Shown piece by piece: positions 38,892 through 48,836 of a DNA stretch of 64,000 nt (positions within the stretch are counted from its first letter, which is position 1; every line of letters begins with the position of its first letter). This stretch comes from an uncultured Megamonas sp. (lineage in GTDB: Bacteria > Bacillota > Negativicutes > Selenomonadales > Selenomonadaceae). The notes beneath the pieces are model-generated. The model saw only the letters and a list, made by a program, of their open reading frames with translations, had not been told where the DNA came from and did no database searches. The stretch is taken from positions 3,546-67,545 of the forward strand of contig CAUWIH010000001.1 in assembly GCA_963558795.1 (NCBI GenBank). The letters run 5' to 3'. The position numbers and the translations under genes were made by a program.

Positions 38892-39959
38892 TTAAAATTT
38901 AAATTTAAATTTTGCATTGGCCTTTAGATATGGTAATAAAATTAAATCATAAGGTAAAAGTTTGGCAATAGTATTAATTTTATTATCTTGAGGTAAAGTA
39001 GTGGTAATAATTTGTAATTCACCTATATAACGAGCATAAAAAATATTATCTAAAGTGATATCGCCAATATTTCGTGAAGTAATATATTCAGGAGAAATAT
39101 GCACATTTTTAAATAACATACGACTTTCTTGAGTACGAATAGCCGTATCTGCTTCATCAATACGAACAGTAAATTTATTTTGGGCTAAAATATCTAAAAT
39201 ATCTTGATTTTGAGTGAGTGTTTTTATATTCAAAAGTGTATAATCTTCATTTAAATAAGAAAAAGCCGTGAATTCTTCTTTTGTAGGTAGGCTATCGCCA
39301 ATAAAAATAGAGTCAATGCCTAGTAATTTTAGATGTTGCATAGCTACACTTGCAGGTAAATAGCGATGACATTCTAAGCTAGGTAAGCCACGTTTAAATG
39401 GCGAACGCGGTTTATTATAACTAGGAACAAAAGCACCGATAGAGATATTATATTGGCGTAACAATTTATTTTGTGTGATAAATTTTTCAATACTTAGCCC
39501 TGTACCTTCACGTGGATAAAAATTATGCAAAGCATCAATTTGGTTGAAATTTGTGTGATAAAATTTTAATTCTTCAAGAAAATCCGCAGTAATTGTGGAG
39601 GCATTGAATTGAAGTTTTATATCTTGATTGCTTAATTTGGCAATTTCTTGAGCAGTATAGCCAAAGTCTAAGCGAAGTGTAGTAATACCTAAAGAGCGTA
39701 GTTTTGCTATATTTAATTTATCCATATTTAAGATAGTCAAAGTATTAGGAGAAATATCAGAGATAACTTCCATATCATATTTTCTAGCCAAAGCTAAAAT
39801 TTGTGCTAAATTTTCTTTAAAGGAACTTAAATTTGTTTCAGGTATATGCAAAGAAGTAAAAATTCTTTTTATATGATATTGATGAGCTAGATTAATTAAA
39901 TTTAAATTTTCTTCAAGGGTATTATCAAGGCCTACATAAATAGAAATACCAAATTGCAT
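38892..39959 (-). CDS. mupG: 6-phospho-N-acetylmuramidase MupG (DUF871)
   Basis: FGISIY, IFTSLHIPE, RLDFG, HNFYPR..TGL, GLPSLECHR; downstream of murP/murQ. ATG at 39959. Confidence 0.85.
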   Translation of the reverse strand: MQFGISIYVGLDNTLEENLNLINLAHQYHIKRIFTSLHIPETNLSSFKENLAQILALARKYDMEVISDISPNTLTILNMDKLNIAKLRSLGITTLRLDFGYTAQEIAKLSNQDIKLQFNASTITADFLEELKFYHTNFNQIDALHNFYPREGTGLSIEKFITQNKLLRQYNISIGAFVPSYNKPRSPFKRGLPSLECHRYLPASVAMQHLKLLGIDSIFIGDSLPTKEEFTAFSYLNEDYTLLNIKTLTQNQDILDILAQNKFTVRIDEADTAIRTQESRMLFKNVHISPEYITSRNIGDITLDNIFYARYIGELQIITTTLPQDNKINTIAKLLPYDLILLPYLKANAKFKFKF

Positions 39960-39963
39960 AAAA

Positions 39964-41316
39964 TCACTCCTTAGGGTCGTTGAAACCAATAATATACGTA
40001 GCAATAAAACCAAAAATATAAGCAGTAATTAAGCCTATTAAATAACAACCAATATTATCAGTACTAGCAGTAAGTGGTAAACCAGACAAACCGATCGAAG
40101 TAGCACCAACATGAAAATAAGCTTGCACTGCACCACCAAAAGCACCGCCAATACAAGCCCCCATGAATGGTTTTCCAAGTGGTAAAGTAACACCATAAAT
40201 CAAAGGCTCGCCAATTCCCATAAATCCAACAGGTAAAGCAGAAATAATGGTTTGTTTTAATTTTTTATTTTTAGTTTTTAAATAAACAGCAATAGATGAG
40301 CCGACTTGTCCTGCTCCAGCCATTGCTAAAATAGGCAATAAAATAGTAATACCGTATTGATTTAGTAGCTCAGCATGAATAGGTGTAAGACCTTGATGAA
40401 GTCCAGTCATAACTAATGGTAAAAACACTCCACCAATAACAAAACCAGTGATTGCACCACCAGAATTAATCGCTGAAGTAACAATTAGTCCAATATTTTC
40501 AGCAATGATACCACCTAGTGGTTGTAAAATAAATAATGCAGGGAAGGTAGCAAGCAAAATTACAAGTAGTGGTGTTAAAAACAAATCTAAAATTTGGGGC
40601 ACAATTTTGTGTAGTTTATTTTCAAGCCAAGAAGAAAATGCTACAACAAGTAAAACAGCAACAATACCACCACGATCAGCTAATAAATCAATGTTAAATA
40701 AACTAATATTATTTAACATAGGATGTGTGATAATTACAGCCATAGTACCACCAAGCATAGGTGAGGCATGAAATTCTTTGGCGGTATTTACCCCAACAAA
40801 AATATTTAATCCCCAAAAAACAGCATTACCAGCAATTTGTAAAACTTGAATAGCAGGATATTGACTAAGTGTAGGGTCGAATTTAAAAGCAATATTTAAA
40901 AGACCAGTAATTAAACCACAAGCAATAAAAGCCGGAATTAAAGGCATGAAAATATTAGAAATACGTTTGAGCATTAATTTAAATGGTGTAGCATTTTTTT
41001 GACGAATTTCTTGATGAAGTTTTTCTGCTTGACCAAAATTACTTGCTTGATTTTTAGATTTTTGCTTATTTTTATTTAATAATAATTTAAATTGAGCAGT
41101 TACTTCATTTACTTTTCCTGGACCTAAAATAATTTGTAATTCATTACCATTTAGATTTACCCCAAGAACATTATTTATATTTTTTAGTTCAGTAAGAGGT
41201 AAATTTTCTGTATTAGTTAAATTTAAACGTAATCGTGTCATGCAATTATGAACTTTAGTAATTTCAAAATTTTGCATGAGTGTATATATTTCTTGAGCAG
41301 TTTGTTGTAAATTCAT
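39964..41316 (-). CDS. murP: PTS EIIBC, N-acetylmuramic acid family (MurP-like)
   Basis: EIIB HNCMTRLRL, QIILGPG; EIIC GLHQ, MAGAGQVG and GIGEPLIYG. Confidence 0.85.
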   Translation of the reverse strand: MNLQQTAQEIYTLMQNFEITKVHNCMTRLRLNLTNTENLPLTELKNINNVLGVNLNGNELQIILGPGKVNEVTAQFKLLLNKNKQKSKNQASNFGQAEKLHQEIRQKNATPFKLMLKRISNIFMPLIPAFIACGLITGLLNIAFKFDPTLSQYPAIQVLQIAGNAVFWGLNIFVGVNTAKEFHASPMLGGTMAVIITHPMLNNISLFNIDLLADRGGIVAVLLVVAFSSWLENKLHKIVPQILDLFLTPLLVILLATFPALFILQPLGGIIAENIGLIVTSAINSGGAITGFVIGGVFLPLVMTGLHQGLTPIHAELLNQYGITILLPILAMAGAGQVGSSIAVYLKTKNKKLKQTIISALPVGFMGIGEPLIYGVTLPLGKPFMGACIGGAFGGAVQAYFHVGATSIGLSGLPLTASTDNIGCYLIGLITAYIFGFIATYIIGFNDPKE

Positions 41317-41335
41317 ATCAACCTCATAAATAAAT

Positions 41336-42232
41336 TTATTTATTTGCTAATGCCTTGGCGATAAAACCTTGATTAGCATTTAATTTATCCATTGCTTGTG
41401 TATAGTTTAAATTAGCTAAAATCATTAAAATAGCAGGTTTTACTTGACCATTTGTTTCTTTTAATACAGCAATAGCAGTATCTTCAGTGCAATCAGTTGC
41501 TTCCATAACAATTTTTCTAGCACGAGCAACAAGTTTTTCATTAGAGGCTTTTACATCAACCATTAAATTACCATAGACTTTACCGAGTTTTATCATGGTA
41601 CAAGTAGATAACATATTCAGTATCATTTTTTGAGCAGTGCCGGCTTTCATACGAGTACTACCTGTGATAGCTTCTGGCCCTGTTAATGCTTCAAGAGCAA
41701 TATCAGCATGATGACTGATTTTACTATTGGGAGAACAGCTAATAGCAATAGTTAATGCACCAATATCATGAGCAAAATCCAATCCACCAATAACATAAGG
41801 TGTTCTACCACTAGCGGCGATACCGACAACACAATCTTTATTTGTTAAATGTTTATTAGACAAATCATCCTGAGCTAAAGTAAAAGAATCCTCTGCGCCT
41901 TCTTGTGCTTTAAAGATAGCATTATAACCACCAGCAATAATGCCTTGTACCATTTCAGGGTCGGTGCTATAAGTTGGGGGACATTCTACAGCATCTAAAA
42001 TACCAAGTCTACCCGAAGTACCTGCGCCAATATAAAATAAACGACCACCATTTTGTAGGCGAAGAGTGATTTCATCAATAGCTTTAGCAATTTGTGGTAA
42101 AATATTACGTATAGCGATAGCTACGCTCTTATCTTCTTCATTTAAAAGCATACACATTTCTAGTGTAGAAACAGTATCTATATTTATAGTATAAGGATTA
42201 CGTTGTTCCGTTAATAAATTATTAAGTAACAT
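41336..42232 (-). CDS. murQ: N-acetylmuramic acid 6-phosphate etherase
   Basis: GAGTSGRLG, DAVECPPTY, GAEDS, GIAASGRTP, GSTRMKAGTAQK. Confidence 0.95.
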   Translation of the reverse strand: MLLNNLLTEQRNPYTINIDTVSTLEMCMLLNEEDKSVAIAIRNILPQIAKAIDEITLRLQNGGRLFYIGAGTSGRLGILDAVECPPTYSTDPEMVQGIIAGGYNAIFKAQEGAEDSFTLAQDDLSNKHLTNKDCVVGIAASGRTPYVIGGLDFAHDIGALTIAISCSPNSKISHHADIALEALTGPEAITGSTRMKAGTAQKMILNMLSTCTMIKLGKVYGNLMVDVKASNEKLVARARKIVMEATDCTEDTAIAVLKETNGQVKPAILMILANLNYTQAMDKLNANQGFIAKALANK

Positions 42233-42400
42233 AAAAAAGCCTCCAAATCATTAATTTTTAAGAGAATATGTAATTAATTATATGTATAGATAAGCTAAAT
42301 AACAAGTTTTAATAAACTTTAAATTCTATTTTAAAGAAAATTTAATCTTTAGATGATATATTAAAGACAAATAAAAAATAAGACAAAAGGTCGTGTTAAT

Positions 42401-42691
42401 ATGTTAAAATTATTAAAAGGAAAAATGAAAAACGTTGTTTCTATTATAGCATTAGCTTGCTTTTTGAGTACTCCATTAACTTATCTAGCTCAACCAGCTA
42501 CAGCAGATGCTGCTATCTTCCATAGAGATAGAGGACATCATCACGGTTGGCACAAAGATCATTGGGATGATGACCGCTGGGATGATGATCGTTGGGATCA
42601 TGATGATGATAAAGATTTTGATAAAGGCGATATAGCAGCTGCCGTTGTAATTGGTGGAGTTGTTGGAGCTGTAATTGCAAATAATACTTGA
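42401..42691 (+). CDS. Secreted His/Trp/Asp-rich small protein with C-terminal glycine-zipper-like segment (paralogue 1)
   Basis: Signal peptide ending ATADA; HHHGWHKDHW(DDDRW)x2; tail DKGDIAAAVVIGGVVGAVIANNT. Alternative start ATG 42425. Confidence 0.75.
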   Translation: MLKLLKGKMKNVVSIIALACFLSTPLTYLAQPATADAAIFHRDRGHHHGWHKDHWDDDRWDDDRWDHDDDKDFDKGDIAAAVVIGGVVGAVIANNT

Positions 42692-42717
42692 TTTGGATAA
42701 ACATGGGAGGAAGTAAA

Positions 42718-43209
42718 ATGAGAGAATTATTTTCCAAAAGAGCAAAAAAAATAATTTGTGGTATATCTCTTTCCTGTTTTTTATGTAGTCCTGTAAGTTA
42801 TGTTTTTGGTATGCAAAAAGCAGCTGCAGCGGCATTAGATAATAATGTAGTTTATGAAAATAATTTTGATGTAACACAATTTGATGATAAAAAATGGGAT
42901 AGAGATCATAAGCGCCCTCATTGGACTAAAGACAGATGGGATGATGATAAATGGGATAAAGACCATAATAAAAGACCACATCGTCCACATTGGGACAAAG
43001 ATGATAAATGGGATGATGATGATTGGTGGGATAGAGACCACAAACGTCCTCATCGACCACATCGTCCACATTGGGATAAAGACAGATGGGATGATGATGA
43101 CTGGTGGGAAGATCGCAAAGATGATGACAAAGACTATGATAGAGGCGATGTAACAGCTGCTGTATTAATTGGTGGTGTTATCGGTGCGATTATTGCAAAA
43201 AATACTTAA
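42718..43209 (+). CDS. Secreted Trp/Asp/Arg-Pro-His repeat protein with C-terminal glycine-zipper-like segment (paralogue 2)
   Basis: RBS GGGAGG then ATG 42718; signal ending KAAAAA; tail DRGDVTAAVLIGGVIGAIIAKNT, nearly identical to paralogue 1. Confidence 0.8.
   Translation: MRELFSKRAKKIICGISLSCFLCSPVSYVFGMQKAAAAALDNNVVYENNFDVTQFDDKKWDRDHKRPHWTKDRWDDDKWDKDHNKRPHRPHWDKDDKWDDDDWWDRDHKRPHRPHRPHWDKDRWDDDDWWEDRKDDDKDYDRGDVTAAVLIGGVIGAIIAKNT
42895..43107 (+). repeat. Three coding repeat units WD(R/K)DH(N)K-(RPH)n-W(T/D)KD..WDDD with n = 1, 2, 3
   Basis: Read directly from the translation; synonymous codons vary between copies. Confidence 0.9.
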
Positions 43210-43240: not shown

Positions 43241-43280
43241 ATAAAAGCTAGATTAGTATATACTAATCTAGCTTTTTTAT
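43241..43280. terminator. Bidirectional terminator
   Basis: AAAAGCTAGATTAGTA..TACTAATCTAGCTTTT inverted repeat between convergent genes. Confidence 0.8.
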
Positions 43281-43282
43281 TT

Positions 43283-45199
43283 TTAGAAATTATATTCTAT
43301 ACCTAAAAGAACAGTTCTACCATTGGCTGGACAATATCCGTCAATAATAGAGCCTATTTTTTCATAAGATTCATTAGTTAAGTTTGCTAATTTTAGATAA
43401 GTAGACCAATTATCATTAATTTTATAGTTAAAGTTAGCGTCAATAATAAAATAGCTACTATCATAATAACTATGATCACGACCAGATACACCAGTGAATA
43501 ATAAATTATTATGCCAAATATCGTCATGATAACTAAAGCGCATTTTATAGCTATTAGGAGCTACTGCATTGACATCAGTTTGCTCATGATTACCAAAATC
43601 AGTTTTAGTGCTAGTATGAGCATAGCTAAGTGTCATATCATATTTTGGACTAAATTCTTGAGTATAATCTAATTGGAAACCTTGTTTTTTCTGGTCAGCA
43701 AAATTTATTGCATGAAATTTTTTATCATTAAGATTGTATTGCCAGCCGATAGGGTCATCAATTTTTTCTAAAAATACATTAAAATTGAGCATACTTTTTT
43801 CAGATAATTTATGACGAATACCGAGGCTACCTTTATAACCGGTTTCAGGTTCGAGGTTTGGATTACCCTTGATATAATCATTATTAAAATAAAGTTCATC
43901 TAAAAATGGTGTAGCATAGATTTCTTGAAGTGAAGCATAAATAGTAGTTTTATCATCAGCTTGATAATTTAAAGCACCATTGGAAACATATTTACCACCA
44001 AATTCACTATTGCTGTTATATAAAGACGTTCCAGTAAGAATTAATTTATCAAAACGGCGAGTAGATTGAAAATAAATAGAAGTATTATCGATACTTTCAT
44101 TATAATTTGCACTAAATGGTTCAGAGTAAGAATTATTTATATTATCTACATTGGTATGACGATAAATTAAACCAGCAGATAAAATATGGTCTTTACTTAT
44201 TTGCCAAGCATCATGCCAATCAATACCACTTGCAGTATTTTCCCAGCGATTATAACTAGGTTCATTTTCTTGTTCAACAAAACCAGTTGGAATATAGCTA
44301 TCTCCTTGTGTATAGTTATGATAAATTGTAACGTAAGCAGGAGTATTAGTTTTTTCTTTATAATTATAAGTCAAATCAAAATGATTGATTAATTTTTCAT
44401 AATTATAATTTTGAGGATAATTTGCAAAAATCCATGTTCCTGTATCATTACTTAAATGGCTATAGTTGAAGGTAAGTGAAGAATCATCTGTTAATTGTTT
44501 ATCAATACGATAAGACATTTCACGACGATTTTTTTCAGAGTTTGGTAATTCGTGATCATCGCCATCTATACCGTGATATTTTTGATAATCAATATTATCA
44601 AAGCCACCAGTAGCGACCCAAGACCAATCTTTGATACTACCGCTAGTTATGGCTTTAGTTTTCCATTGACCATGCTGACCACCAGCGATATCAATAGTAG
44701 TTTCACGATTAGTTCCCTTTTTGGTAATAATATTAATAGCACCGCCAGGTGTATCATAATTTAAAGCATTTGCGCCTACAGCACCATGAACGATTTCAAT
44801 ACGTTCAACATTCATAATAGAAGGTAATAAATCTAAATCGTAAGAGGCACGCCCATTAGTTAAGCCTTTATCCATATTTAAACGACGACCATCAATGAAA
44901 AATGCTACACGGTCATCACCATCGATACGAATAACAGTATTAGCCGTATTGATAGAGCCTGGATTTACGATAACACCATTAGCATAGGTAAGTGCTTCTG
45001 CAACATTTTGGTAATGATTATCGTGAATTTCTTGAGCGGTAATAATTGTAGTATAAGCTGGGGTTGTAACTAAAGCATTATTGTCGATAATACTATGTAC
45101 ATTGGGATAAGGTGCTTCGTTTGCATATGAATTGTTTGGGAAAAGCAACGAGCAACTAGCTAAACCTAAAATTAATAAAGTAGATTGATGTTTATTCAT
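43283..45199 (-). CDS. TonB-dependent outer-membrane receptor
   Basis: Signal peptide; plug motifs IITAQEI..VAEAL..ANGV, IDGRR, ERIEIVHG, GGAINIITK; NPNLEPE; C-terminal GIEYNF beta-signal. Confidence 0.9.
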   Translation of the reverse strand: MNKHQSTLLILGLASCSLLFPNNSYANEAPYPNVHSIIDNNALVTTPAYTTIITAQEIHDNHYQNVAEALTYANGVIVNPGSINTANTVIRIDGDDRVAFFIDGRRLNMDKGLTNGRASYDLDLLPSIMNVERIEIVHGAVGANALNYDTPGGAINIITKKGTNRETTIDIAGGQHGQWKTKAITSGSIKDWSWVATGGFDNIDYQKYHGIDGDDHELPNSEKNRREMSYRIDKQLTDDSSLTFNYSHLSNDTGTWIFANYPQNYNYEKLINHFDLTYNYKEKTNTPAYVTIYHNYTQGDSYIPTGFVEQENEPSYNRWENTASGIDWHDAWQISKDHILSAGLIYRHTNVDNINNSYSEPFSANYNESIDNTSIYFQSTRRFDKLILTGTSLYNSNSEFGGKYVSNGALNYQADDKTTIYASLQEIYATPFLDELYFNNDYIKGNPNLEPETGYKGSLGIRHKLSEKSMLNFNVFLEKIDDPIGWQYNLNDKKFHAINFADQKKQGFQLDYTQEFSPKYDMTLSYAHTSTKTDFGNHEQTDVNAVAPNSYKMRFSYHDDIWHNNLLFTGVSGRDHSYYDSSYFIIDANFNYKINDNWSTYLKLANLTNESYEKIGSIIDGYCPANGRTVLLGIEYNF

Positions 45200-46124
45200 T
45201 GTGAAAATAATCCTTTCCTAAATCTGTATATTTAATTTTTAAATAAATAGTGATAGCAATAAAAAAGTTACAAATATTTTTTAATAAAAATAGTAAATTT
45301 ATAATAAGATAGGTACGTAGAGTAGTTAAAATTCTAGATATTTTAGCATAAATTAAAATAAAAATAAATAAAAATATATTTATTGTAGAATGTTGACGAT
45401 GTTTTTTTACCTTAGTGTACAGTTTTAATAATAAAGTATTGATTGCTTTGCCTATAAGATTACCCAATTGAGAAGTAAGCAAACTCAAAAAAGCAATGAT
45501 TAATAAACTAATATCTACCCCAATAAAATAGATAGCGCCAATACTTAAAAAAGGAATGATTAGTAAAAATAAGATTTTTAAACAGATTAAATTGAAAAGC
45601 ATAATAATAATGTTTCTCAGTAATCGTTTAAACATTAAGGTATGGGTAATGATGAAATTTTTTAAACGAAAAATAGCATTACTAAGTGGCCATAATGATT
45701 TACAAAAAATTTTAAGGTCAGTTAATCTTTGGCGTAAATGGTCAAAAAATTGTAACCAAAATTGACGAAAATCAGTAGGTATTTGACGGATAATTTGGAT
45801 TAAATTATTTGGAGAAAAATTCATTAATAATGATTTAATGAAACGTGAGATATCATTAAATGAAGGAATAAGATTATTAAAACTATGAGCTATTTGACGA
45901 ATGGAAGATAAAATATCTTTAAACGAATTAAAAGATAAATTTATATTCATTAAATGTTGAAGAAAATTACTAAGTGGTAAAGGTAAAATAGTAAAAAATA
46001 AACAAATAATAATACCTAAAAATCGAAATAAAATAACAAAAAATAAATATCTTAAAAATAAAAATGGTTGACGTTTAAAAGCCAAATATTTGATATACAG
46101 TTGGCGTTTTAGCTTAGAAAACAT
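45192..46124 (-). CDS. Hypothetical basic, hydrophobic membrane protein (ORFan-like)
   Basis: 310 stop-free codons in very AT-rich DNA, RBS GAGGTG, 8-nt overlap with the receptor start; no recognisable family motif. Confidence 0.55.
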   Translation of the reverse strand: MFSKLKRQLYIKYLAFKRQPFLFLRYLFFVILFRFLGIIICLFFTILPLPLSNFLQHLMNINLSFNSFKDILSSIRQIAHSFNNLIPSFNDISRFIKSLLMNFSPNNLIQIIRQIPTDFRQFWLQFFDHLRQRLTDLKIFCKSLWPLSNAIFRLKNFIITHTLMFKRLLRNIIIMLFNLICLKILFLLIIPFLSIGAIYFIGVDISLLIIAFLSLLTSQLGNLIGKAINTLLLKLYTKVKKHRQHSTINIFLFIFILIYAKISRILTTLRTYLIINLLFLLKNICNFFIAITIYLKIKYTDLGKDYFHNE

Positions 46125-46184
46125 AAAAACACCTCAAATGAAATATATAACTGCCTATAGTATATAGTCATTTGAGGTGTTTTT
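46125..46184 (-). terminator. 17-bp inverted repeat after bioA; its downstream arm contains the RBS of the next gene
   Basis: AAAAACACCTCAAATGA (46125-46141) / TCATTTGAGGTGTTTTT (46168-46184). Confidence 0.7.
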
Positions 46185-46197
46185 TCAAGAGTGGATT

Positions 46198-47550
46198 TTA
46201 AATATGGAGTGTTTCGTTGATAGAGCTATAACAAAGGTCAATAGCTTTATCTAAAGTTTCTTTGTCTATATTTAATGGAGGATTAAAATATAAAACATCA
46301 CCTAATGGTCGAAGTAATAAGCCTTTAGTTAAGGCTAATTTATAAATTTGATAACCTAGACGTTTATCACTAGCAAAAGCTTGTTTAGTGTCTTTATTTT
46401 GAACTAATTCAATAGCATTTATTAAACCAAGATGACGAATTTCACCAACATTAGGATGATTTTCAAAAACATCTTGAAGTTTTGCATGTAAATATTTAGC
46501 AGTATCTTGAGCTTTTTCTAAAATATGTTCTTCACGTAATATTTTTTGAACAGCAAGAGCTGCAGTACAGCCAAGAGGGTTACCACTATAAGTATGACTG
46601 TGCATAAAGGCTTTACCTTCACTGTAATCAGCATAAAAAGCATCATAAATTTTTTGTGTAGTAATAGTTATAGCCATTGGCATATAACCACCAGTTAAGC
46701 CTTTGGAGATAGTCATAATATCAGGAGAAACATTTGTATAATCAAAAGCAAACATTTTACCAGTACGACCAAAACCAGTAGCAATTTCATCAGCGATTAA
46801 AATAACATTATATTCATCGCAAAGTTTACGTAATTTTTCAAGATAAAGTGGTGGATACATACGCATACCTGCACTACCTTGAATAAGTGGTTCAACAATA
46901 ACAGCAGCAAGTTCATTACCGTATTTGGCAAAATCTTCCTCAGCATGAACAAAACATTCACATTTACAAGTATCACGATTTAAGCCATAAGGGCAACGAT
47001 AACAATCAGGAGCTTGAGTATGCACTGCATTCATAAGCATTGGTTTATAAATTTTAGCATATAAATCCATACTACCAACGGATAAAGCACCAATAGTTTC
47101 ACCATGATAACCTTCAGATAAACACATAAAACGTTGTTTTTGTGGATTGCCTGTTTGATAATGATATTGGAAAGCCATTTTTAAAGCACATTCTACAGAG
47201 GCAGAACCATTATCACTAAAGTTGAATTTACATAATCCTTTTGGCACTATTTTTATCAATTCTTGACAAAGTTTAATAGCTGGCTTATGAGAAAGATTAG
47301 CAAAGATAACATGTTCAAGAGTATCTAATTGTTTTTTTAGTGCTTCATTAATTGTAGGATTAGCATGACCTAAAAGATTACACCACCAAGAACTAATGAT
47401 ATCTATATATTCTTTGCCATTAATGTCATATAAATAACTACCTTTACCATGGTCAATGACAATAGGTTTTAATTCTTCATAGTCTTTCATTTGTGAGCAA
47501 GGATGCCAGATATATTTTAAATCTTCGTCAACCCAATTTGTATTACACAT
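46198..47550 (-). CDS. bioA: Adenosylmethionine-8-amino-7-oxononanoate aminotransferase
   Basis: IWHPCSQM, SSWWCNLLGH, SDNGSASVE.ALKMA, YHGET, DEIATGFGRTG, SKGLTGG, HSHTYSGNP. Confidence 0.95.
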   Translation of the reverse strand: MCNTNWVDEDLKYIWHPCSQMKDYEELKPIVIDHGKGSYLYDINGKEYIDIISSWWCNLLGHANPTINEALKKQLDTLEHVIFANLSHKPAIKLCQELIKIVPKGLCKFNFSDNGSASVECALKMAFQYHYQTGNPQKQRFMCLSEGYHGETIGALSVGSMDLYAKIYKPMLMNAVHTQAPDCYRCPYGLNRDTCKCECFVHAEEDFAKYGNELAAVIVEPLIQGSAGMRMYPPLYLEKLRKLCDEYNVILIADEIATGFGRTGKMFAFDYTNVSPDIMTISKGLTGGYMPMAITITTQKIYDAFYADYSEGKAFMHSHTYSGNPLGCTAALAVQKILREEHILEKAQDTAKYLHAKLQDVFENHPNVGEIRHLGLINAIELVQNKDTKQAFASDKRLGYQIYKLALTKGLLLRPLGDVLYFNPPLNIDKETLDKAIDLCYSSINETLHI

Positions 47551-47580
47551 AATAATCCATTCCTTATTTTCTTAAATTTA

Positions 47581-48249
47581 TTATAAATATAATTCTTTTA
47601 AAACATTAACATCAATATCAATATCAGTGTCATTTGGTTTTACAAGAGCAAGAACTTTATAATTAGTGAGTTCTTCAATCATTTTAATATTATCATCTTG
47701 CATAATACCACCAGTATAATTATTTAAAATGATACCTTGAATTTTAATATTTTGTTGTTTTAAATATTCAATAGTAAGAACTACAGAATTTATAGTACCA
47801 AGACCAGCATCAGCAATAATTAATGCTGGTAAATCTAACCAATGAATAATATCAGTAAGAAAATATTTAGCTTCATCATCATAACGAATAGGACAAATAA
47901 TGCCGCCACTACCTTCAACAGTGACAAAATCATATTTTTGTTGGACAGTGTGATAATCTTTAATAACTACATTTTTTTCTACAGGATTACCTTCAAGTTG
48001 ACTAGCTAAATGAGGAGAAACAGCATGTTTATATAAATAAGATAGTAAAGTTTTTTCTTCTTGATGAATATCAGCTATTTTATTGACATAGCCAGCATCA
48101 CTATTAGTGATATCATTTGCACCACTTAAAGCTGCTTTATAATAACCAGCATTTAAATTAGCTTCACGTAATTTTTTTACAAGTAAAGCAGTTACATAAG
48201 TTTTACCAATATCTGTACCAGTTGCAGTAATAAATAAACCTTTACTCAT
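47581..48249 (-). CDS. bioD: Dethiobiotin synthetase
   Basis: FITATGTDIGKT, YYKAALSG, SPHLA, VEGSGG, LGTIN. Confidence 0.95.
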   Translation of the reverse strand: MSKGLFITATGTDIGKTYVTALLVKKLREANLNAGYYKAALSGANDITNSDAGYVNKIADIHQEEKTLLSYLYKHAVSPHLASQLEGNPVEKNVVIKDYHTVQQKYDFVTVEGSGGIICPIRYDDEAKYFLTDIIHWLDLPALIIADAGLGTINSVVLTIEYLKQQNIKIQGIILNNYTGGIMQDDNIKMIEELTNYKVLALVKPNDTDIDIDVNVLKELYL

Positions 48250-48269
48250 AGGACATCTCTTTTCTTAAA

Positions 48270-48836
48270 TTAATTATAATATCTTAAATTAGGTATTAGT
48301 TTTTTACCTAAAATAGCAGCAATGATACAAAGAACAATATCTCCAGGTACAGCTAGTAAGAAACAATATAAAAATAAAGGCCATACACCAATTGGAGTAT
48401 TTAAATAAAAATTATTGATGATATAAACATAAATCATGCCAAATCCATAAACAAAGAATAGATTTACAAAATTTACAAAGATTAAATAAGTATAAGATAA
48501 ATGTTGACGTTTTTCCGTTAATTTGCCAGCAAAATAAGCACCAACAGCAAAACCGATTAAATAACCAAATGTTGGCTGGAGAATATATCCAGGACCACCG
48601 CCTTCAGTGAAGATTGGTATACCAATTAAACCAATAATGATATATGTAAATACACTAATAAATCCAAGATTTGCACCCAATAGTAATCCTGCCAAAGTAG
48701 TAAATAATAATTGCAAAGTAAAAGGACAGACAGGAACAGGAATTTTTATGAATGCACCAATAGCAATTAAGGCTACGAATAAAGCACATAAAATCATGTT
48801 TTTAGTAGTTAAAGTTTTTTGGGAATTAGTTGACAT
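48270..48836 (-). CDS. bioY: Biotin ECF transporter S component
   Basis: VPVCPFTLQ, GLIGIPIFTEGGG, PTFGYLIGF, PGD motifs. Confidence 0.92.
   Translation of the reverse strand: MSTNSQKTLTTKNMILCALFVALIAIGAFIKIPVPVCPFTLQLLFTTLAGLLLGANLGFISVFTYIIIGLIGIPIFTEGGGPGYILQPTFGYLIGFAVGAYFAGKLTEKRQHLSYTYLIFVNFVNLFFVYGFGMIYVYIINNFYLNTPIGVWPLFLYCFLLAVPGDIVLCIIAAILGKKLIPNLRYYN

Follow-up and report, generated by a model that had tools for sequence, protein, structure and literature searches.

Two tandem genes of Megamonas belong to an expressed, previously unnamed family of small proteins with a conserved glycine-zipper tail and a variable middle

A 64,000-nucleotide (nt) stretch of DNA from an uncultured Megamonas sp. 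(contig CAUWIH010000001.1, positions 3,546 to 67,545; the whole stretch is referred to as the window) carries two small adjacent genes, A and B, at positions 42401 to 43209. A preliminary description of this DNA, made from the sequence alone, proposed a pair of secreted Trp/Asp/His-rich proteins of an uncharacterised envelope system. The question raised by the locus is whether these genes represent a genuine family and what its members may do in the cell envelope. A and B prove to belong to a genuine small-protein family that is expressed and had no name before, and are tandem paralogues in one transcription unit. The DNA comes from a Megamonas species other than M. funiformis, the proteins encoded by neighbouring genes being 67–92% identical to those of M. 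funiformis. The features of the two genes are listed here, with lengths in amino acids (aa) and the basis of each assignment in brackets.

42401 to 42691, plus strand: gene A, 96-aa precursor, the small A-type paralogue (open reading frame; A-type orthologues lie upstream of B in other Megamonas)
42401 to 42511, plus strand: predicted signal peptide of A, aa 1–37, with a Lys-rich n-region and the h-region VVSIIALACFLSTPLTYLA (direct reading and family comparison)
42557 to 42604, plus strand: 15-nt tandem repeat of A, 3.2 copies, encoding (W)DDDR units (TRF)
42623 to 42688, plus strand: C-terminal module of A, GDIAAAVVIGGVVGAVIANNT, a glycine-zipper helix and NNT end (alignments)
42705 to 42710, plus strand: Shine-Dalgarno sequence GGGAGG of gene B, 7 nt before ATG 42718 (sequence reading)
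42718 to 43209, plus strand: gene B, 163-aa precursor, the B-type paralogue (open reading frame; same position in all Megamonas loci examined)
42718 to 42834, plus strand: predicted signal peptide of B, aa 1–39, with the n-region MRELFSKRAKK and the h-region IICGISLSCFLCSPVSYVFGM (family comparison)
42835 to 42885, plus strand: conserved mature N-terminal segment of B-type proteins, LDNNVVYENNFDVTQFD (alignment columns 40–56)
42928 to 43109, plus strand: 78-nt tandem repeat of B, 2.4 copies, with an internal 9-nt CGTCCACAT present three times (TRF)
43144 to 43206, plus strand: C-terminal module of B, GDVTAAVLIGGVIGAIIAKNT, with a juxtamembrane G-D, an AxxxGxxxGxxxA helix and a terminal KNT

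Gene A is read from the ATG at 42401 and not from the internal ATG at 42425, because a comparison of sequences shows the N-terminus MLKL(I/L)KG to be kept in other Megamonas. The open reading frame of gene B had been listed from a TTG at 42688; the corrected start is the ATG at 42718, from which the sequence reads MRELFSK..., the N-terminus common to the B homologues. A B-type copy is present in every Megamonas locus examined.

The similarity between A and B is concentrated at the C-terminal end. By BLASTP only the last 23 residues of the two proteins align, 16 of which are identical (70%, E-value = 1e-6), and thus the common C-terminus of the preliminary description is borne out. When orthologues are added, D..DKD.D.GD..AAV.IGGV.GA.IA.NT is invariant in 15 Megamonas sequences. 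The ending found family-wide is [Y/H]-x-x-G-[D/E/N/S]-x-x-(T/A)-(A/G)-x-x-x-G-(G/A)-V-x-G-A-x-I-A-(K/N)-N-T, and a comparison of 28 sequences from six genera shows no variation at G152, G156, A157, I159 and A160. The tail of B forms a canonical glycine zipper, A148xxxG152xxxG156xxxA160, as had been proposed. Over the last 22 codons, comparisons within and between genera give non-synonymous divergence (dN) of 0.02–0.4 and synonymous divergence (dS) of 0.5–1.6 or saturated; for A against B the values are dN 0.16 and dS 0.54. These codon comparisons show the shared tail to be under purifying selection. Gene conversion was considered as a cause of the shared A/B tail and rejected on account of the high synonymous divergence between the two genes.

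Database searches place A and B outside described families. Pfam and NCBIfam searches with the full A and B sequences gave no match reaching threshold, and gave none to PF05433 even at E ≤ 10, in keeping with the earlier view of an uncharacterised envelope protein. Sub-threshold matches of proteins or fragments were to PF05433 and to a syndecan transmembrane segment, with composition-driven ones to ZrgA, Asr and an HHHH-motif protein. A search of PDB sequences with the family profile returned only low-complexity noise and a syndecan-2 transmembrane peptide (E-value = 1.8). Gene B has 299 homologous clusters at 90% identity by single-sequence search and about 450 with a profile. The named B clusters are all Megamonas 'hypothetical protein' entries, none with a Pfam domain, and a third search with a broad alignment added only further Megamonas clusters annotated in the same way. 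Gene A yields only four near-identical clusters in public data, and these differ by repeat units. The resemblance of A and B is more than chance, since dN in the tail is well below dS and some 450 homologous clusters are found.

An exhaustive HMMER profile search recovered 34 proteins at E ≤ 1e-3 among 1.84 billion representatives, all of 182 aa or less and of low complexity. A scan of one genome per species gave 34 loci, in Megamonas, Pectinatus, Mitsuokella, Selenomonas and Centipeda as well as in metagenome-assembled genomes (MAGs). The MAG loci belong to unnamed Selenomonadaceae, Selenomonadales or 'Veillonellaceae', and one to an Acidaminococcales MAG. In named genomes the family is found in Selenomonadaceae only.

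The N-terminal ends also share a motif, as noted before: in the hydrophobic block L18, C20, F21, L22, P25 and Y28 are invariant in the 15 Megamonas sequences. All family members show a basic n-region, an h-region of 18–23 residues (up to about 30 in some) and an A-x-A site, very often AEA. Signal peptidase I sites are predicted at A35-D-A37|A38 in A and at A37-A-A39|L40 in B, with A37 of B invariant in the alignment. By these features the family N-termini are predicted to be canonical Sec/signal-peptidase-I signals, and the Sec-type signals first proposed for the pair thus extend to all genera. The invariant L(A/S)C in the Megamonas block prompted a lipoprotein reading, which was rejected. No family member fits DOLOP, G+LPP or PS51257-style lipobox patterns, the residues that [LVI][ASTVI][GAS]C requires at −3 and −2 are not those of ALAC and SLSC, and the Cys at position 20 is restricted to the Megamonas clade and absent in other genera.

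The predicted mature N-termini of many members start with His motifs, e.g. HPH, SPRHH, SPFHHGH and ASHH. B-type Megamonas proteins share LDNNVVYENNFD instead, and their segment follows the pattern L-[DN]-x-N-x-x-Y-E-[NQ]-[NQ]-F.... Weaker (Y/F/Q)E(Q/V)Q-like motifs are found near the mature N-termini in other genera. The B-type segment is a possible short interaction motif, a candidate suggested by the alignment.

Between the signal and the tail, the sequence is not conserved. The preliminary description gave both proteins a middle of WDDD, His and Arg-Pro-His repeats; the WDDDR repeats and a His cluster are present in A, but Arg-Pro-His repeats are found only in B. The mature middles of A and B contain 32–39% Asp together with Arg, Lys, His and Trp, with net charges of −8 (A) and −10 (B). 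One (W)DDDR unit of A is absent in some strains, seen as a 15-nt deletion at 42563 in run X28, and 91-aa variants of A are found (P0122 and P0123). The 78-nt repeat of B encodes WDDDDWWDRDHKRPHRPH units, and its copy number is hypervariable between strains: strain variants of B range from 134 to 178 aa, and RNA and DNA contigs show insertions and deletions at 42948–43012. The 173 full-length Megamonas B-type proteins differ in length (33 values) and in the middle (117 distinct sequences), but their last 25 residues come in just 7 versions. The middle thus evolves by repeat slippage.

Across the family the middle ranges from 18 to 190 residues in length and from −24 to +21 in net charge. Its composition may be poly-Asp/Trp/Pro, Glu/Arg, Gln/Asn/Pro or Lys/Gly-rich, and its His content is 0 to 28%, with 10–28% in many members. 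The Trp/Asp/His content therefore does not hold as the defining feature of these proteins, as homologues extend from poly-Asp to Glu/Arg-rich, Gln/Pro-rich and net-basic sequences, some of them lacking His; Trp/Asp richness is a Megamonas peculiarity and not a family property. Since composition varies this widely among homologues, the selected and conserved part is the tail and not a defined metal-binding sequence. An AlphaFold2 model of B built with the family alignment has a mean predicted local distance difference test (pLDDT) score of 48.7 and shows only terminal helices (residues 5–23, 32–39 and 142–161). The model is consistent with the middle being an intrinsically disordered ectodomain, and agrees with the disordered His/Asp/Trp-rich middle that had been described.

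The limits of the transcription unit are set by the following features.

42313 to 42372, plus strand: AT-rich upstream region with an imperfect 30-nt direct repeat (TRF: period 30, 2 copies, 80% matches)
42354 to 42362, plus strand: extended −10 promoter element TGATATATT (read from the sequence)
43243 to 43276, both strands: bidirectional intrinsic terminator with a 15-bp stem and T-runs on both strands, shared with the convergent TonB-dependent receptor gene

The element TGATATATT is invariant in four Megamonas loci, i.e. the window, M. funiformis L001, L007 and L004, and the upstream block from 42313 to 42372 is conserved in four Megamonas loci. A contig from metatranscriptome run X25 begins at 42369, 7 nt downstream of the −10 element; a single RNA contig from 42369 to 43144 spans both A and B, and an RNA contig of run X30 stops at 43274, i.e. 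at the terminator. In metatranscriptome contigs from four runs of one study the A–B pair has a word depth of 30–130, and the receptor-side flank 0–9. The murQ-side flank has a depth of 0–9 in three of the four runs, and in the fourth one contig, of depth 58, extends from murQ into the pair. A second study contributed a run with a depth of 27 for the pair and 0–15 for the flanks. The pair is thus clearly present in RNA libraries as one unit, deeper than its flanks, which agrees with the expression in vivo that the preliminary description demanded, and the proposal that the paralogues have their own transcription unit is upheld by the spanning contig and by the promoter and terminator bounds. 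The direct repeat (TAAACTTTAAAT..TATTTTAAAGA.AA) overlaps the −10 element and is kept across Megamonas species; it may be a regulator binding site. Rfam and tRNA scans of the window found nothing.

The number of copies at the locus is 1, 2 or 4 depending on the Megamonas species. Two copies are found in the window, in M. funiformis loci and related MAGs, and in M. hypermegale. In one Megamonas species (L004, 3492–3860) the promoter and the first eight codons of A (MLKLTKGT*) are kept, the rest of A is lost, and only the B-type gene remains. Candidatus Megamonas gallistercoris (L008, 3680–5429) has four paralogues in tandem, with lengths of 94, 165, 151 and 144 aa, and the tail of one is degenerate (STSIVVGNVVGAIINKGI). 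The paralogue array expands and contracts between species. Further members of 69 and 100 aa are found at two other genomic sites in Megamonas sp. UBA1796 (L019 and L040), with mature N-termini beginning HPH.. or HPL..; dispersed as well as tandem copies are therefore possible in one genome.

The A-type gene of M. funiformis (L001, 5689–5953; loci L046–L095) carries a T-tract inside the signal-peptide coding region. The tract is T5 in 26 of 50 human-gut metagenome contigs and T6 in the other 24. T6 leaves an intact 88-aa open reading frame, and T5 produces a frameshift that cuts the frame at 25 codons. Phase variation was considered for this tract. T5 occurs mainly together with one flanking haplotype, which favours a common null allele over rapid switching. 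The deletion of A in one species and its frameshift in 26 of 50 M. funiformis contigs indicate that A-type copies are dispensable, with B-type copies retained. The two thus do not form an obligate two-component system; A is an accessory duplicate beside B, the constant member.

What such proteins do can be proposed only tentatively. The reading preferred here, held at a little short of an even chance, is that A and B may be cleaved, membrane-held small envelope proteins, in which the zipper tail oligomerises or docks and the remainder forms a periplasmic cation-binding polyelectrolyte. Sec would export the precursors, and signal peptidase I would cleave them behind A-x-A, between A37 and A38 in A and between A39 and L40 in B. 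The glycine-zipper helix of 14–16 residues would then retain the mature protein in the membrane. An acidic residue precedes the helix and a Lys follows it in most members. From the placing of these charges, the most likely topology would be a type-I (N-out, C-in) cytoplasmic-membrane anchor with Asp/Glu outside and Lys inside. The small-residue face of the tail would pack against its own copies, the paralogue or a conserved membrane partner, and such packing would account for the near-invariance across genera of what is otherwise a mere anchor. A dense polyelectrolyte would thereby be placed in the periplasm next to the membrane, where the poly-Asp/Trp/His segment could bind and buffer cations, i.e. 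divalent metals, protons or polyamines. Transition metals would be plausible ligands in view of the His enrichment in many members. A stand-alone function is suggested by the varying number of locus copies and by the lack of any neighbour conserved across genera in the loci compared.

Several points weigh against this reading. The single apolar run is only 14–16 residues long and lies at the extreme C-terminus. Its summed free energy on the Hessa central scale is close to 0 (−1.0 to +0.4 in all but one member), and as a stop-transfer segment the run is therefore marginal; the protein might instead be set free in the periplasm or inserted in the outer membrane. The terminal (K/N)NT is invariant, which a simple anchor role does not explain. 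In the oral Selenomonas group there are net-basic members that lack His, and with a middle of unconserved composition metal binding cannot be the function of the whole family unless it amounts to generic polyelectrolyte behaviour. With respect to expression, contig depth is a rough and poor measure, run X29 is flat and probably contains DNA, and DNA carry-over is possible in some runs.

The short and marginally hydrophobic tail suits a second explanation, which is judged unlikely: that the proteins are outer-membrane glycine-zipper stress proteins like SlyB, OsmB and YfgH but without a lipid anchor. The tail would escape stop-transfer, oligomerise in the thinner outer membrane and stabilise lipid or protein domains there, with the charged segment facing the periplasm or the surface. 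The host belongs to the diderm Firmicutes, and hypervariable repeats would suit surface exposure. Negativicutes are not known to have the Lol lipoprotein pathway, and a proteinaceous anchor would therefore make sense. PF05433 proteins (SlyB/Pcp, OsmB, YfgH and the Rickettsia 17-kDa antigen) are likewise small exported proteins, abundant in the envelope of diderm bacteria, with a conserved (G/A)xxxGxxxG helix that is thought to drive oligomerisation in the membrane. Glycine-zipper lipoproteins have been described as abundant, oligomerising outer-membrane stabilisers (bioRxiv 10.64898/2025.12.22.696046). The isolated tail of A matches PF05433 with 18.3 bits, over model positions 22–41 of 43 only, and among other members P0152 alone shows a match, of 17.2 bits; both are weak half-domain matches below the gathering cut-off of 24.2, and B has none. 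The A/B family also differs in having one helix and not a two-helix hairpin, in lacking the lipobox of the characterised E. coli members, and in consisting otherwise of disordered polyelectrolyte and not of a folded domain. Homology to SlyB was rejected when the family profile, aligned by hhalign with E. coli SlyB (sequence verified against PDB 7ojf), gave a probability of 1.2%. Furthermore, we know of no route that takes a helical protein to the outer membrane in the Negativicutes lineage, which counts against this explanation. The A/B family is thus not a member of PF05433, though it may work in a similar mode.

A third explanation, considered unlikely, is that the proteins are degenerate relatives of the RcnB family (PF11776), periplasmic accessory proteins of metal homeostasis, that have kept the signal, linker and hydrophobic tail (GD-hydrophobic-(T/G)G-hydrophobic) and lost the RcnB core. 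They would modulate metal efflux or uptake, and the tail could be a beta-hairpin or partner-binding element and not a membrane helix. RcnB proteins resemble A and B in having a signal peptide, a low-complexity charged, His- and Pro-rich linker and a C-terminal GD-hydrophobic-G-hydrophobic tail, and many members of the A/B family are His-rich. Titles cited in PMC13371490 report RcnB to be a periplasmic, Cu-binding protein that Ni/Co homeostasis requires. Among the proteins recovered by the exhaustive profile search was P0150 (E-value = 1e-5), a true RcnB-domain protein (PF11776, 3e-14) with the same layout of signal, Arg/Asp-rich linker and hydrophobic tail; P0150 was chosen by similarity, and its score of 97.5% is biased for that reason. 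Five independently collected, annotated RcnB-family proteins from proteobacterial plasmids, found by tblastn with the RcnB-domain part of P0150, served for comparison; full-length P0150 gave no tblastn match against plasmids. The family profile aligns by hhalign with these five proteins over the last 22 residues (GDFVLAAIATGVISSII...) with a probability of 76% and an E-value of 2e-5. The segment is short and apolar, and a 22-residue Gly/Ala/Ile match is within the range of convergence. The resemblance to the RcnB-family tail is the closest found in sequence, and a weak one. However, none of 20 true family members matches the PF11776 model at E ≤ 1, the outlier P0150 alone doing so, and the core of about 35 residues, W-x-RGDRLP...L-x-x-PP-x-GY-x-WV, is missing from the A/B family alignments. 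In addition, no rcnA-like efflux gene is a conserved neighbour, and the A/B family belongs to Selenomonadaceae whereas the RcnB proteins collected were proteobacterial.

A broader proposal, regarded as quite unlikely, is a lineage-specific envelope organiser of Selenomonadaceae. The zipper tail would oligomerise and plant a polyelectrolyte or His-rich brush in the periplasm or on the surface, and this brush would set local cation, polyamine or metal availability or envelope spacing. The repeats would diversify rapidly under host or phage selection, and the tail may share ancestry with the RcnB tail. Selenomonadaceae are diderm Firmicutes and are not known to have Lpp and Lol.

Two other kinds of protein were compared. 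SilE/PcoE metal sponges and the acid-shock protein Asr are Sec-exported, disordered, His- or charge-rich periplasmic polypeptides. The composition-driven NCBIfam matches mentioned above, seen in a few members, are a weak likeness to these and lie far below cut-offs; these proteins are soluble, have no conserved hydrophobic tail and show no sequence homology to A and B. C-terminal sorting tags (LPXTG, PEP-CTERM, GlyGly-CTERM) consist of a motif, a helix and a basic tail placed on many unrelated passenger domains per genome, and are caught by NCBIfam/TIGRFAM tag models. A sorting tag was excluded for A and B, whose tail is found only on small low-complexity proteins and carries at most one Lys; no tag model is among the 25 NCBIfam families most often matched at E ≤ 1.

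The weakest explanation, already named as an alternative in the preliminary description, is a glycine-zipper toxin or bacteriocin of the two-peptide kind, whose parts A and B would act jointly on competitor membranes. Class IIb two-peptide bacteriocins have a double-glycine leader, a peptidase-domain ABC transporter, an immunity gene and a requirement for both peptides; A and B lack the leader, the transporter and the immunity gene, and the A-type gene is absent or null in many genomes. The contact-dependent Caulobacter bacteriocin CdzC/CdzD is similar to the pair in consisting of two small adjacent genes with glycine-zipper segments, and glycine zippers occur also in membrane-depolarising toxins (PMC5380434). 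CdzC/D have an extended glycine zipper and few residue types making up 75% of the mature protein, together with a leader of the type I secretion system (T1SS) kind, adjacent type I secretion genes cdzA/cdzB and a multi-pass immunity gene, cdzI (PMC5380434). The toxin is highly improbable for A and B, which have Sec/AxA signals and not double-glycine or T1SS-type leaders, mature parts rich in Asp/Arg/His and not Gly/Ala-rich or cationic, one dispensable partner, a chromosomal position fixed in all six Megamonas loci examined, and no cdzAB-type secretion gene, ABC transporter, or CdzI-type or other immunity gene beside the pair or conserved in the loci compared.

The genes flanking the pair in the window are mupG, murP and murQ on one side, and on the other a TonB-dependent receptor gene, an open reading frame of 310 aa and bioA/D/Y. 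The two immediate neighbours are as follows.

41336 to 42232, minus strand: murQ (SIS domains)
43283 to 45199, minus strand: TonB-dependent receptor gene (Plug and barrel domains; convergent with the A–B pair)

On the murQ side a complete N-acetylmuramic acid (MurNAc) recycling operon (38892–42232, minus strand), consisting of mupG, a murP-like gene for the EIIBC of a phosphotransferase system (PTS) and murQ, is divergent from the A–B pair and shares with it an intergenic region of 168 bp. On the other side the preliminary description had the pair facing a TonB receptor across a shared terminator. The convergent gene and the 15-bp-stem terminator are present as described, but the receptor adjoins the family only in Megamonas. 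A functional link to the receptor was rejected, the genes being convergent and the adjacency limited to this genus; the adjacency is genus-level synteny and not a system.

The open reading frame of 310 aa (45192–46124, minus strand) is hydrophobic and rich in Phe, Leu and Ile, overlaps the start of the TonB-dependent receptor gene and has no Pfam match. It is 45–57% identical among Megamonas species, and an open reading frame of 70 aa takes its place in the L004 species. Receptor and 310-aa open reading frame are arranged head-to-tail and share their strand with bioA, bioD and bioY (43283–48836, minus strand), an order that is kept in Megamonas. The arrangement may point to an uptake locus related to a vitamin or cofactor.

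Bacteria of Megamonas and other Selenomonadaceae are common in gut, rumen and mouth. Their Gram-negative-type envelope is unusual among Firmicutes, and its small proteins are poorly known. A and B belong to the broad kind of small exported glycine-zipper envelope proteins; their family is lineage-specific, well transcribed, hypervariable and of simple architecture. If its function is that of a generic anchor plus spacer, the finding is an ordinary one. The family is well represented in gut metatranscriptome contigs and combines a strongly selected tail with a middle whose length varies between strains. Finding the partner of the tail, and whether the charged segment captures metals, protons or polyamines, would extend the known envelope biology of diderm Firmicutes by one component, and might explain strain-level variation in a prevalent gut commensal.

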